Source of the DNA: Escherichia coli
Lineage (GTDB): Bacteria > Pseudomonadota > Gammaproteobacteria > Enterobacterales > Enterobacteriaceae
Direction: 5' to 3' (one strand)
DNA: 64,000 bases
Assembly: GCF_030013595.1 (NCBI RefSeq)
Contig: NZ_CP122769.1
Shown here: in pieces, positions 33,001 to 51,000 of the stretch
Numbering within the stretch: the stretch's first letter is position 1
How the letters are laid out: every line of letters begins with the position of its first letter
Made by a program: the position numbers

Positions 33001-36000
33001 TTTTTGTAATGTGGTATGGTGACCCTTCTTTCTTTTTAAGAGAATGCAGTGAAGAAAAGATAAAAGAAGCAGCTAATATTCGAATTTCTCCAGTTTATAC
33101 AGAATAATTCGATATGGGCATTTACTTATGCTTAAAGCTATAGTATAAAAACAATGAGCTTAAATATCAGCTCCCAAATTTGAGTAACTTTGCTTAAAGT
33201 TACTTTCGCGTTAAGCGTTGATTTAGCCGTGAAAAGCGGCCAGCTTAAACAAGCTGTAAGACACCACCGGCAAAATGTCACCTTTGTCGCTGGTGCACTT
33301 CCCATGCCTGAAAAAGGCAATCTGAATTTACCAAACCGTAACTAATTTAGCTCCTCCTGGAGCTATTTTTGTTGCGTACTTCTAATGCCAGATAGTATAA
33401 ATCAGGCGGTTCATAGCTTACGGGAGATGAATGACAGGCTTTGCCTTCGTGTTGAAACAAAAAATTGTTTCTTCCTTCTTACTATATATAGGTGACCCCA
33501 AATGTCTAAAAATAAAGCTCGCAGTAAAGCCCTTCATCAAACCTTTAGTGAAATTATTCCAGAGATGGATAAGGCGCTAAACAAACAGCTCTTAGAAGTT
33601 CTGATGAAATATACAGAACGTGATAATGAACTGATTGTTATTTTGAATGAGGACGGCCCAAATATCATTGAACTTAAGTCTCTTAAGCCTGTGTCTTTGT
33701 TGGCCGAAAAGCTTTCTGCTTATTCAAGCTATTATCATGTGGATGTTGTGGAGCTCGTGGTCAAGAAAATTGATTTCGAAGGAGCTTATAAGCTTCTTAA
33801 AGCTTCCCCAGATGTACCACTTTTTAAAAGCTTAACTGAACTGGATAAATATCTTGTTGAGGAGTTTGAAAAATACGGATTAAATTCATTTCTTGACGTG
33901 GATAATCTGGATTACTCACTTGAAAAAGCCAGTGAACTCAAAAATGAGCAGTTAATAAATTGGGTTTCGGACATCATTTGCAAACGTGAAAAATTAACTT
34001 TACGTAAGCGTTTTGATGTCGCAGTAAAGGCCCACTACGAAAATGTAGAAAAAATGTATGATACCATTCGTCCGTTAATGAAAAAACTGGGTTTCCCAGA
34101 AGATCTCATGACGCACACCTTTAGTGAGTTAAGCGTTTTTGAAACTAAAGGATGGGACCATGCAATAAAATCGAAAATTGAGACTCTCGCTAAGCGTGAA
34201 ACTCAATATTTAGATGATGCGGCTAAAGCAGAGAATCGACGTCTTGTAACAGAGAAGTTGGAGAACTCTTTAGCGATTGCACCAACTAAACCAACAAGAA
34301 ATTGGTTACATATTGCCGGAATTGCCTGTTTGGTAGTCTGCACGTTCATGTATGTAACTAATAAATTTATTTAATCCTGTTAAGGGGGAACCCTAACGGG
34401 GCTTCTCTTTGAACAAATCGAGGAGCGGAAAATGTCATATCTTGAATATATCAATGAAGTAAAAGTGTCCGGGATAGTTATCAGTGCTGTGGAGAAAAAA
34501 ATGACTGACCAGAGTATAGGTTTGTTAATAAAGCTCAAAAATAGGATGAAGACAGAAGTTGATGGTGAAATCACTGAGAGAGAATTTTCAGTTCAAATCA
34601 AGGTGTCGCCTGAAATGTATTCAACCTGTTTCACTGGTATAAATCAGGGTGATGAGTTGATGGTCTCCGGTTATATTGTTGTCGATACTATTATGATTGA
34701 AGGGAGAGAACATCCTCTTGACTACATGAGAGTGGTAGCAACAAGTAAGTTGGCTCACATACCTAAACCTCTAAAAGGTTTTGGACAAAGTAGCTTTAAT
34801 CAGATCTGACATTAAACCCACCCTAAAGGGGAGAAATCCCTTCATGGGATTTCTCCTTTTGGAGTCCCCATGAAACAAAAATTTAGGGCTACTGCAATAA
34901 GTAGTAATCAACTTAGTTTTTTTTCTATACTCGATATAGATGAAGATGAAATAACGCAAATAGTTGATTCACCCAAAGAGCATTTAAATGATGCTTACAC
35001 GTCCGGATTAAACTTTAAATCAGAAGAAAGTAACATTTCTGAGATAAATTATGATTCTGAAAGGCGTGAAAATCACCTTTATGAAAAATCCAAATTACTT
35101 AAAAATCAGATTTTGCATACAATTAATTTTGCAGCAGAAACAGATTATCTATATACGGTTGAAGAATATAACCCAGATTTGGGTGGTCTGGTAATAGAAT
35201 GGACCCCTGAGGATGTGTATGTTGTTTTTCTATCCGCTATGGAAGAGTCTTTGGAAATCATTAAAGAACTAGTGTTGAGGAGAAAGTTATTCTTCAAAGA
35301 TGACAATGGTAATATCACAGTGAATCCACTTTTAGAAGCTGAAACACGGTGGTATATGTCAAAATCATTTGAATACACTTGTTTATCTCATGGACTTGAT
35401 GCATGTGAATTTAGAGCGGAATTAAAATCATGGCTCTATTATCATTCGCATCGTTCGATTAGTGAAAACACGAAATTAGCTGAATGCAGGAATGATGATG
35501 AAATCATTTTGCATGATTGCAATGACGATATGGGCTGGGACATCTTCTTTGATCAGGATTATTTAATGTCAGAAAAAAAACTGGCTGTTAAATGGACTGA
35601 CAGGGAAATTATGGATGTTTACATAAAAGCTTTTAAATCCACATTAGAGTTGTTTGACGAGCTTGTTTCATGTGATCTGTTAACTAAACGAAACGCTTTT
35701 GGCAAGTTAGAAATCAATCCAATATTCGAAAATCATTTTGAATGGATCATGTCTGAAGCTTTTGAAATAGTGGGAAATCATCTTGGTTATAATGTGCCTC
35801 AAATCAGGAAACTGATGGCAACTATTTGCCAAATGAATCTCAAATAAAATGCCACTGGCAAACATCTGCCAGAGGGCGGTGTTTGCATTTTACCGGAGTT
35901 AAAAATGTCTAATGCCGCTATGAAGTTAAATGAAACATCTTCTGATGCTTATGAAAAATTAGAAGCTCTTCTTTCCCCGGATGTTATAAAGTTAAAACAT

Positions 36001-48000: not shown

Positions 48001-51000
48001 AAACAACTCCTTAAAACAGTTCAAACCAGAAATGCATGTACCTTCTGAAGAACTCTTTTATAATTAATCTAACCCATCCGGGAACCTGCTTCCCGGTGGG
48101 AAGCACTTCCTTTTTAGTCATGAGGTAGTGTAAATGTTTAAAGAATCTGACCACGTGGAATTTGTTAGTGCCTTTCTTTATCAAAATTTAGGCCTTAATG
48201 TTTCCGCTGACGATATAACCGTTCAATTATCTGATACTTCGTTCGACAAAGTAACCTTTGATTACGATGTAGATATCGATAATTTAAATTGTATGTTGGA
48301 TCTCTACATATCTGAGCTAATAAAGCACAACGCATCTTACTCCGATTCTATTCTTTTGAAACAAAAAATAATTTATTTTCTTGGAGTATTTAAGAATTTC
48401 GGATTTTTTACGTTTGATATTCGCGGATATAGTAATACTTTAAGCCCAGTTAAAGTTATTGATATTGTTTCAATGATTATTAATGACTGTGAAGAGTTAT
48501 CTAAAGCTAATTCTTCTACTGATGCTATAAGAAATCTTTATCTCGATAAAATGAAGGTGGATGGGAAAGTGTTAGTTGCGAAATTTGCACTTAAACAGTT
48601 TTTTCATTCCGACTTTGGTGACTTTATCTCATTTGTCGAGAAAAGAATTACAGATTGTCTTAATGAAACTTTAAGGATTATCAAAGCTGTTGAACATGGC
48701 TTTGTACGTGTAGGGCAGCATAAGATTAATCGCCGTATTAATGATGACTTAAAGTTATGCATTGATTTCAATACTGATGATTATCCGGCAAATATGCCAG
48801 ATATATATATTAAGTTTAACGATACATTTGATGGGAACGGGGCGTTATATTGTGACAATGATGCCCTCATATCCCTCTATACCGATGTTGCTTCAATTAT
48901 CAATGTGCCGGTGATGATGGAAGTAAGATTGATCAATAAAAGAGGGCGTGTTGTCTGTGATTCTTCGCATTCAACTTACGTATCTCTCGAAAGTAATGAC
49001 CGATACAGAGTAACTGATCGCACATTACTAATAACTGAAGCTTTTGACGATTTTCGTAACGCGTCTCAATGATCCTTTTGCTTCAGTCCAAAAAAGTAAC
49101 TTTGGTTGGCTGAAGACACTTGTCTATGACAATGTAAAATCTGTCGCTGGCATCTTCTTTTAGCTTAACCAAATTTTTATCTAACCCAGTGGGGAAGTCG
49201 CTTCCCTTCTGGGGCACTTCCTCTCAAATTCGAGGTAGTGTATATGACACATTCATCTGATGATAAAAACTATGTCCGAGCAGTTCTGAGTTATCTTGGC
49301 ATAGATTTTGATGAGGCGGATATAGTATTAAGTGTTTGCCATTGTCAAAGTGACGAGCTTTCTTTTACCTGTAATATCAAAGCTATTGAACTCAAGAATG
49401 CTGTTGATTTATATGTCGATAGTATCTCTGAGAATGAAATAGAAGCTTTAAACAGAGAATCTTTAAAATCGCGACTCTGTTACTTTCTTGAGGTGTTTGA
49501 CGCAGTCTCTGGTCAGTACCTTGAAATTTCAGGAAAACACTTTGCAACTAGTCGTTTTGAATATGATGATGTTTGTAGTGAAGTTCTTAGCATGTCTAAT
49601 GATGTTTCTCAGTCGAAAGGTTATGACCGGGATGAATATAACAGACTGATGCAGGTTGATGGTCAGGTTATGATTGCCCGTTTTGCTTTGCAACAGTTCT
49701 GGGATACTCATTTTATTGGACTAATAACATTTGTATCTGAGTCTATAACATCGAGCCTCTATAAAGCTTATGAAACTTTTAGTGATATTAGTTTGGCTTG
49801 CTATAAACTGAGTGAATATTCTTATTCACGCTCTATCAACAGTGAATTGACCCTTAATATTTCACTTAAAGAAAATGACTTCTGTGAGGACCTATCTGAT
49901 TGCTATATGGAAGATGAGGCTTTACCTTCTGGTAGGGTAATTTCTCGACGCAACAATGACTCCATAATAAGTATTTATGAGAGCTATGCTGCGGCTTCTT
50001 ATATTCCGATGATTGCATCTTTGGAAGTCGTTGATGAATACGGCGAAGTGGTTACTGACCTCTGCCATACCGTTTATGTTTCAGAGTTAACCGGTGGGCG
50101 GATTAAAATCCACGACCGTAATGACTTAGTATCTGAAGTTTTCGATAACCTAAGAAATTTAAATCTTGCAGTTGGAGATTCAGTTTCACAAGCTGCTTGA
50201 TTCTTTCCCTGATTTTGATTTTTTCTCACATACTCTTATGGCACGGTTTCCGTGCCTTTTTTTGCCTCGCTTACAAGCGTCTACTCCTCTTCTACCTATC
50301 CCACCTTACATCACCACTTAAAATCTATCTTTCTAATTCCATTATCCTTTTCGTAGCCTCTAATGCTCTGGTATGAACATACTCTTTAAACTCAAAAAAG
50401 TGCTATTAACGAAAAAAAATCCCTAAAGAGATTTGTATACTGTTCTCAACCAAGGAGAGCTCATGAATGAACTAAAATCCAAAAACGAGAACAGTACCAA
50501 AAGCAACTTTCCCCCGGTTGATAATCAGTTTTGCTTTTACCATGTTGATTTCAGCATAGAACGACTACTTTCTACGGCCGAGGATCTCCAGCTTGAGTAC
50601 ATCTTCCAGAAACCTGGAAGTGAAGTAAGAAAGGATTTGGTTGAGCGATTTGAACGTGGAGAGCGCTTTGTTACAGCTTCACACTGTGACAATTTCTGTG
50701 AAATCCTTGGTTGTCAAGGCCATCAGGAAAATGCATAAACCCATAAACCTACATTTCCACTTTTAAGGATGTTCACTAAAGAATGATTGGAGAAAGTATT
50801 TTTGACTGGGTAATTTACGGAATATCCATTTTGATATTTGCCTCAGCACTAATTGAAGGAAAGACAACTCGCTACCCAGCACTTTTTTTCTATGGGAGTT
50901 TAATTTTAATGTTAATCCTGATAGTTGCTGGAGGCCTTAACTGGTGGTTCTACAGGTCAAAATATGGCGCAGTAATCGTTATCTTCACAGTGGTTTCTTT

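Follow-up and report, generated by a model that had tools for sequence, protein, structure and literature searches.

What do the GC-rich hairpins do that follow nearly every gene in a 16.9-kb region of an IncHI2 plasmid? The region was analyzed within a 64,000-nucleotide (nt) stretch of Escherichia coli contig NZ_CP122769.1 (hereafter the window). It carries 17 genes, all on one strand, and its hairpin block spans 33.5-50.2 kb, directly 3' of the Tra2 transfer genes trhU, trhN and trhI. The 16.9-kb region matched Salmonella and E. coli IncHI2 plasmids at 100% identity, and over 1000 PLSDB records carry at least 80% of it. Plasmids of the IncHI1 and IncHI2 types play a major part in carrying mcr-1, NDM and multidrug resistance in typhoid; the block belongs to the conserved IncHI backbone, yet it is annotated almost wholly as hypothetical. 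Our analysis identified two features which had been missed in an initial annotation of the hairpins, namely a second hairpin that masks the Shine-Dalgarno (SD) sequence of the following gene and an alternative pairing that competes with it. We consider with moderate confidence that the modules built from these pairings may act as attenuator-like bistable RNA switches that control the translation of each cistron and in some cases its termination. With equal assurance we would hold that they are neither independent terminators nor recombination sites.

Hairpin modules and masking of the SD

The block holds 13 intergenic or 5' untranslated region (5'-UTR) hairpin modules and three strong terminators (Table 1). 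Relative to dinucleotide shuffles, the minimum free energy (MFE) of the 13 spacers or 5' UTRs gave z scores of -1.7 to -10 with a mean of -4.97, whereas the mean for 33 other gene-upstream regions of the window was -0.08 (Mann-Whitney p = 2e-7). A second array on the same plasmid, comprising 42 small same-strand genes, had a mean z of -0.57. The initial annotation had reported that GC-rich hairpins punctuate nearly each gene, and this was borne out, as all 11 positions that it listed fall inside real hairpins, those of S2, S5, S6, S7, S8, S11, S12, S13 and S14 and of the terminators at 42198-42231 and 50240-50256. S1, S10 and the 5'-UTR module S9 are additional to that list. The contrast drawn there with tightly packed genes elsewhere was also upheld. 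Spacers beyond 50.4 kb are short or without structure.

A consensus among the hairpins, which the same annotation had put forward as a check, was found. The first hairpin of the modules (hp1) follows a shared design, CCC-N2-6-GGG-N3-14-CCC-N2-6-GGG, and is mostly 28 nt long. This motif occurred at seven sites, every one in a block spacer, compared with 0.39 expected in shuffles, and matched once, which is chance level, in the other 150 kb of plasmid scanned. The modules have a common design and not a common sequence, and are therefore not dispersed near-identical copies of the type seen in repetitive extragenic palindromes (REP), bacterial interspersed mosaic elements or miniature inverted-repeat transposable elements (MITE). 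An Rfam covariance-model scan of 33000-50600 returned four chance-level matches, all far below gathering scores. Full-text literature searches found no earlier description of these IncHI hairpins, such absence being no proof of novelty.

The block reads as two long operons, one from h290 to the primase-like gene and one from h173 to h318, because only three strong stand-alone terminators were found and promoter-like sites were not enriched (37 found versus 48 expected in a consensus scan, with none evident in the spacers). Operon 1 runs from h290 to the genes for a CobS-like ATPase, a DUF3150 protein, a CobT-like VWA protein and the primase-like protein. The monocistronic layout proposed in the initial annotation was thus not supported, as only the sites at 33348-33365, 42198-42231 and 50240-50256 look like strong stand-alone terminators.

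Each module has the order x-A-y-B-(U/A-rich loop)-C-AUG, which allows three possible helices. hp1 is formed by (x+A):y and is a GC-rich hairpin of ~28 nt that begins 1-31 nt past the stop codon; this distance is 10 nt or less in ~60% of the modules and 13-31 nt in the others. Directly 3' of hp1 lies hp2, the pairing B:C across the U/A-rich loop, in which C is the SD region of the next gene and B an anti-SD. hp1 and hp2 are mutually compatible, while the third helix, hpT, excludes both. The fresh ribosome-binding site expected after each hairpin is indeed present, but it is predicted to be base-paired in 10 of the 12 modules, with a pairing probability of 0.67-1.0 for the SD 6-mer. Opening the region from -16 to +6 was predicted to cost a median of 11.2 kcal/mol, compared with 6.7 kcal/mol for 33 other genes of the window (p = 7e-4). 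The SD of h290, the first cistron, is unmasked. The downstream SDs are therefore predicted to be sequestered in the manner known from translational coupling by RNA unfolding; B sits 30-45 nt past the stop codon, and so is not a masking strand that upstream ribosomes would melt directly. An H-type pseudoknot between the hp1 loop and B was excluded by reasoning on sterics, as a linker of 0-1 nt would have to cross an 11-bp stem.

The alternative hairpin and its conservation

B has a second complement in the distal 5' arm and loop of its own hp1 (element A), and because it matches both A and C, A resembles the SD region C. In nascent RNA, before C exists, A:B together with a small apical stem drawn from y, the 3' arm of hp1, can form the register-shifted hairpin hpT. 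The match of B to its own hairpin was specific to each module. Summed duplex energies of B with its own hairpin were -107 in IncHI2, -124.8 in IncHI1A and -100.8 in IncHI1B, compared with -69.8 +/- 6.2, -86.5 +/- 6.0 and -63.2 +/- 5.5, respectively, for B with the hairpins of other modules, and none of ~7300 derangements was as good in any of the three plasmid types. The gain in folding energy from hpT was likewise specific to each module's own B. Binding of a CsrA-type protein was ruled out as the main cause of the likeness between A and C, the match being module-specific.

hp1 and hpT constitute two exclusive and similarly stable hairpins with a common segment, as is characteristic of attenuators. 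The median free energy difference (hpT minus hp1) was +1.5 kcal/mol in IncHI2, -0.15 kcal/mol in IncHI1A and -2.5 kcal/mol in the Klebsiella clade, and in most modules the MFE structure of the nascent RNA flipped to hpT once the outer 0-2 nt of hp1 were blocked. A U-run directly follows hpT in S5 (U7), S6 (U6), S11 (U7), S13 (U5) and the toprim>h179 spacer of the Klebsiella plasmids, which corresponds to roughly a third to a half of modules, the others being without one. The combination of hpT and U-run was called terminator-like by an independent scan at S5 and S13, and by eye at S11. hp1 and hp2 together form the thermodynamic sink at -24 to -36 kcal/mol. Kinetic barriers, estimated with findpath as upper bounds for direct paths, were 17-24 kcal/mol between hp1 and hpT, 5-11 kcal/mol from the SD-open hpT state to the masked state (20 in S7), and 18-32 kcal/mol in the reverse direction. 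S12 was the exception to these ranges, with a barrier of 0 from open to masked, as B was not engaged in its constrained fold.

IncHI1A and IncHI1B plasmids (genes ~67% identical at the DNA level) and two metagenomic lineages share this gene order and module architecture; the scan of genome contigs gave 2 loci, and that of metagenomes 24 loci with 2 new lineages. Modules of operon 1 are also present in Klebsiella pNDM-MAR-like plasmids, whose proteins are 35-50% identical, and there the hairpin sequences have turned over with the x-A-y-B-C relations kept. Across 15 spacer alignments, standard pairs were kept in 98% of cells for hp1, 95% for hp2 and 95% for A:B, versus 50-57% in slid controls, and pairs changed on both sides numbered 5, 8 and 3, respectively. 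In S11, hp1 and hp2 were 96.5% paired with four double-sided covariations, which at most 6 of 500 shuffles equalled, and hpT was 98.3% paired. This module also provided the clearest three-way covariation, ATCAC/GTGAT/ATCAC versus ATTAC/GTAAT/ATTAC (columns 27-45-72), in which one column of B covaries with A and C together; with five sequences it is not significant alone (109 of 500 shuffles). Overall the spacers were more conserved than the flanking genes (75% versus 67.5% identity), and S3 reached 94%.

Proposed switch and competing explanations

The computed results cover the three pairings and how specific and conserved they are, along with their energetics; the following sequence of events would account for them. 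Because hp1 is transcribed first, the default would be read-through with a masked SD: hp1 would fold during transcription and leave B free to pair with the SD, so that translation would be OFF. If the 5' base of hp1 were occupied while B is being made, hpT would form instead, and the likeliest occupant would be a ribosome finishing the upstream open reading frame (ORF) or a leader mini-ORF. hpT would keep B off the SD and translation would be ON, in a metastable state of limited duration; where a U-run follows hpT, transcription would be attenuated as well. The expected net effect is that the expression of each cistron would depend on, and be throttled by, events at the end of the preceding one. 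The trigger is probably the upstream ribosome during transcription. Consistent with such a trigger are the closeness of hp1 to the stop codon (10 nt or less) in ~60% of modules, the unmasked SD of h290 and a leader mini-ORF in S9 that ends at or in hp1. This mini-ORF (42320-42432, upstream of h173) is conserved with 25-36 codons, MLAQ(L/F)NKCA..., and in five lineages its stop codon lies 2-4 nt before hp1, inside hp1 or just past it. Its substitutions are mostly non-synonymous, so that, if important, it would be a ribosome delivery device rather than a source of peptide.

Several observations weigh against a switch of this kind. All module structures are predictions from nearest-neighbour energies, and formal covariation for hpT is thin and drawn from few lineages, the S11 signal being matched by the shuffles at the rate given above. 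With C present, hp1 and hp2 together are 9-17 kcal/mol more stable than hpT. An equilibrium form of ribosome-driven unmasking was rejected, as blocking the stop codon plus 9-21 nt left the SD paired, and the switch would therefore work only if it were kinetic (co-transcriptional) or factor-dependent. Given the range of 1-31 nt between stop codon and hp1, a terminating ribosome could reach only ~60% of the modules, and S14 has neither a nearby ORF end nor a leader mini-ORF. S3 and S12 have little or no hpT. Part of the likeness between A and C could be left over from the origin of the hairpins. In modules with a U-run, moreover, the fold induced by the ribosome would terminate transcription, which makes the regulatory sign ambiguous.

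The competitor that survives best, although we regard it as unlikely, is that the hairpins are leaky intrinsic terminators or 3'-end stabilizers for each gene, close to the view of the initial annotation, producing a step-down gradient of mRNA and protection from 3' exonucleases, with the SD pairing and the alternative fold being incidental. Intercistronic stabilizer hairpins are familiar from the REP sequences of the malEFG, pap and puf operons. The GC-rich hairpins of the block do begin 1-31 nt past stop codons, and terminator-like sites were enriched about 2-fold (29 found versus 14.2 +/- 3.3 expected in a consensus scan). U-rich tails come straight after the stem at S7, S8, 42198 and 50240, and several hp1 (38504, 42429, 44992) are preceded by A-tracts and have minus-strand terminator scores. 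Most hp1, however, are followed by B and not by a U-run. A stem followed by a U-tract within 0-2 nt was seen at 33348, 42198, 50240, S7 and S8, whereas hp1 has no directly adjoining U-tract in S1, S5, S6 and S10-S14; the T-runs described initially stand straight after the first hairpin at a minority of sites and more often come after B. Such terminators or stabilizers would also leave unexplained the masked SDs, the module-specific complementarity of A and B, the finding that in three lineages two exclusive hairpins are nearly equal in energy, and 5'-UTR modules far from any stop codon (S9, S14).

Processing of the RNA by RNase E or RNase III in or near the modules, for example in the hp2 loop, would yield stable monocistronic mRNAs, the upstream piece ending in hp1 and the downstream piece starting with a freed SD. 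The hp2 loops are single-stranded and U/A-rich, hp1 would shield 3' ends, and a cut separating B from C would free the SD; the RNase III sites of the T7 early region are arranged in a similar way. The hp1 and hp2 stems of 8-15 bp are nonetheless short for RNase III, and processing alone does not explain the bistability of hp1 and hpT, though hpT could capture B after a cut. We judge this explanation improbable; processing could coexist with the switch.

A role at the DNA level appears more remote still, either as hairpins extruded in single-stranded DNA (ssDNA) during transfer or replication (priming or ssi-like) or as recombination, REP or MITE palindromes. It would fit a nearly palindromic hp1, which can form on either strand, the common hairpin design, the primase-like protein encoded in the block, and a tyrosine recombinase, of generic type and on the opposite strand, 5 kb downstream. 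Against it stand the strict orientation stop-hp1-B-SD-start, the pairing of B with the SD, and the confinement of the motif to the block, where dispersed copies would be expected. The relaxase genes mobI and mobH are ~117 kb away, so the block is not the oriT-adjacent region, and the idea of a leading region with ssDNA promoters was weakened by the same distance. The recombination cassettes suggested in the initial annotation were likewise not supported, as gene order is the same in IncHI2, IncHI1A, IncHI1B and, for operon 1, the Klebsiella plasmids, and the elements are oriented and positioned by stop codon, SD and start codon. Inspection of the spacers by eye found no attC-type R/L boxes (GTTRRRY core) or other attC-like signature. 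Nor is the gene order variable, as in integron gene cassettes, and in place of an adjacent integron integrase there is only the generic tyrosine recombinase. Finally, RNA thermometers, in which SD-masking hairpins melt at host temperature, were ruled out and are scarcely credible. IncHI transfer is indeed thermoregulated, and in the ROSE/fourU layout, too, a 5' leader forms two hairpins of which the second contains the SD. However, none of the 12 modules showed a change in predicted SD pairing between 20 and 50 C, so that the SD helix is not predicted to melt over about 30-42 C, and the masks use G-C-rich pairs that cost ~9-14 kcal/mol to open.

Relation to known regulatory systems

Nearest in logic to the proposed switch appear to be leader-peptide attenuators (trp, pyrBI) together with translational attenuation of the ermC type (ermC, cat), followed by translational coupling through RNA unfolding. 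Leader-peptide attenuators share with the modules a pair of exclusive hairpins with a common segment, one of them with a U-run and another masking an SD; in both, the position of a ribosome on the 5' segment could choose the fold, and S9 has a leader mini-ORF. In contrast to those systems, the 'leader' of a module is usually a whole upstream gene and the arrangement is repeated at ~13 consecutive junctions. The modules also use a register shift (1:3, with segment 2 looped out) rather than a 2:3 pairing, and no regulatory codons or drug sensing are evident in them. Coupling by RNA unfolding is known from rpmI-rplT (at +52 nt), f1 gene VII-IX and MS2 coat-lysis (PMC12548453). The modules resemble these cases in having a downstream SD silenced by local structure, similar spacer lengths and an expected dependence of downstream on upstream translation. 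In those systems the upstream ORF itself contains the masking strand, which ribosomes melt directly, whereas in the modules the anti-SD lies beyond the stop codon and its removal would be indirect, through a relay from hp1 to hpT.

Likeness to intrinsic terminators and stabilizers lies in GC-rich stem-loops just past stop codons, some U-runs, and canonical terminators at the block end; the modules differ in that most have no adjoining U-tract, in the SD mask with its alternative fold, and in unique sequences under a common design. Gultyaev, Franch and Gerdes reportedly described in 1997 a folding pathway of hok mRNA with 'coupled covariations'. As in hok, a single element can pair with either of two partners, the three changing in concert (S11), and metastable and final folds would control access to the SD. 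Unlike hok, a lone toxin mRNA that 3' processing activates, the modules are repeated and intercistronic, in operons without a toxin. The read-through transcripts of the phage T4 e (lysozyme) and soc genes carry SD-sequestering hairpins, and the parallel is that the SD is masked in long transcripts and translation depends on how the RNA was made. In T4 a promoter inside the hairpin unmasks the SD, while no promoters are evident in the block spacers.

A bolder proposal, which we advance tentatively and well short of even confidence, is that the modules represent a class of RNA relays, actuated by ribosomes, that has not been described before. During transcription, the base of hp1 would be touched by a ribosome terminating there, and folding would be redirected to hpT; hpT would capture the anti-SD, and the next cistron would be opened briefly before an irreversible collapse into the masked state. 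Chained over ~13 junctions, such relays would restrict translation of an AT-rich, horizontally acquired block to transcripts with the correct promoter start whose translation begins at the first cistron, and spurious internal transcripts would stay silent. If the proposed switching is true, the block would offer an unusually clean natural system in which to study co-transcriptional folding, translational coupling across long spacers and how termination and translation interact, and the tight throttling of a large AT-rich gene set would be explained. It would also be a warning to annotators and engineers that expression of the block genes is not inferable from SD sequences alone.

Coordinates, gene content and further observations

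Table 1. Positions in the window of the hairpin modules and terminator-like sites, with their predicted properties (S, module; z, MFE z score)
Feature	Context	Coordinates	Strand	Elements	z	Other predictions
Terminator-like hairpin	after trhI, upstream of block	33348-33365	+	hairpin + T5		
S1	h290>h125	34376-34426	+	hp1 34376-34400; B 34401-34411; C 34420-34426	-3.9	SD paired 1.00
S2	h125>h325	34827-34869	+	single-hairpin type, simpler three-element version: 14-bp A:B 34827-34859, then TTTT; SD region 34860-34869, near copy of arm A		A:B -15.3; RNAalifold consensus prefers B:C
S3	h325>AAA ATPase	35855-35898	+	atypical, weak; hairpin 35855-35872	-1.7	SD mostly unpaired (0.15); no hpT
S5	h57>DUF3150	37275-37330	+	hp1 37275-37302 (hairpin region to 37313); B 37304-37313; U7; SD 37321-37330		hpT a 14-bp hairpin + U7, terminator-like; hpT -21.5 vs hp1 -17.2
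S6	DUF3150>VWA	38478-38534	+	hp1 38478-38504; B 38505-38514; U6; SD 38526-38534	-5.2	hpT -17.1 vs hp1 -17.7
S7	VWA>h73	40563-40624	+	hp1 40563-40592; B 40594-40603; SD 40616-40624		own A:B -11.6 vs -4.6
S8	h73>primase-like gene	40853-40953	+	hp1 40853-40870; B 40871-40877; SD 40947-40953	-10	MFE -61.9; 67-nt imperfect hairpin 40880-40946 inside loop of SD-masking helix
Strong terminator-like hairpin	ends operon 1	42198-42231	+	14-bp stem		
S9	5' UTR of h173, first gene of operon 2	42403-42460	+	hp1 42403-42429; B 42430-42437; SD 42451-42460	-5.9	hpT -15.4 vs hp1 -15.5
S10	h173>h292	43013-43061	+	hp1 43013-43037; B 43038-43044; SD 43055-43061	-2.2	
S11	h292>h311	43953-44012	+	hp1 43953-43980; B 43982-43989; U7; SD 44004-44012	-7.4	A:B -16.5
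S12	h311>h223	44959-45010	+	hp1 44959-44992; B 44993-44999; SD 45004-45010	-5.9	SD paired 0.98
S13	IS21-split h306 ortholog>h312	48073-48131	+	hp1 48073-48100; B 48101-48110; U5; SD 48122-48131	-4.3	
S14	5' UTR of h318, 111 nt past h312 stop	49185-49241	+	hp1 49185-49213; B 49214-49221; SD 49232-49241	-6.5	A:B -13.3
Canonical intrinsic terminator	ends block; conserved in IncHI1	50240-50256	+	7-bp GC stem + T7		

Block proteins with a family assignment were a CobS-like AAA_5 ATPase, a DUF3150 protein, a CobT-like VWA protein and a primase-like protein with DUF7146 and Toprim_3; the remaining block proteins had no family match, and a PADLOC screen of the block proteins gave no meaningful match to a defence system. 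An IS21-family element at ~45660-47786 (istA 45762-46934, istB 46934-47731; flanks 45017-45688 and 47852-48067) splits the ortholog of an IncHI1 gene of 306 amino acids (aa) into a 5' part of 223 aa and a 3' remnant ORF of 71 aa. The insertion is recent and is missing from most IncHI2 relatives (87% coverage), and a second copy of the same element was found elsewhere in NZ_CP117034.1. The genes h312 (48134-49072) and h318 (49244-50200) are paralogs with 27% identity over 309 aa, and the h311 member of the neighbouring array is missing in one metagenomic lineage (L018); operon 2 thus grew or shrank by whole units of gene plus module.

Single modules showed some features of their own. A mini-ORF of 9 codons (MGFLLLESP; 34843-34872) starts in the loop of the S2 hairpin, and its TGA overlaps the ATG of h325 (ATGA). 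Both IncHI2 and IncHI1B have this mini-ORF, IncHI1A has a truncated form, and the Klebsiella clade has none. The U-run of S5 (37314-37320) is one T longer in NZ_CP117034.1 (T8) than in the window (T7), and a poly-C tract just 5' of hp1 in the AAA>DUF3150 spacers (L007/L012/L016/L022) varies from C7 to C11 within the Klebsiella clade. Such polymorphisms in homopolymer length could be switch tuning or sequencing noise. In the 67-nt hairpin of S8, the 20-mer TTCTGCGTTGTGGGTTTCTC did not vary among any of the lineages examined or among 24 metagenome contigs, and it is kept even in Klebsiella plasmids where nothing else matches at the DNA level. This hairpin, which had no Rfam match, could serve as a signal for priming or as a regulatory RNA in its own right. 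Immediately after the terminator that ends operon 1 lies a 48-bp AT-rich near-perfect palindrome (42225-42272), which may be the operator/promoter region of operon 2.

A distant homologue of the AAA-DUF3150-VWA cluster, at 7472-16290 of the Aeromonas pK520-KPC locus (L039), has different spacer motifs. There a 4-bp hairpin, GCCC-YNN-GGGC, abuts the SD (A/T)GGA at at least four genes, and ordinary terminators occur as well. Hairpins at each gene may be a broader habit of this type of gene cluster.

Elsewhere in the window, a 249-bp tandem repeat at 4060-7150, between trhC and parA, is present in 12.6 copies with 73% match, and its copy number differs in NZ_CP117034.1. That plasmid is also missing a 2.7-kb segment, 22549-25251, which has a GC content of 56-57% and seems to interrupt trhW. 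With ORFs of 216, 115 and 523 aa in a layout typical of the IS66 family, it is a candidate element of that family.

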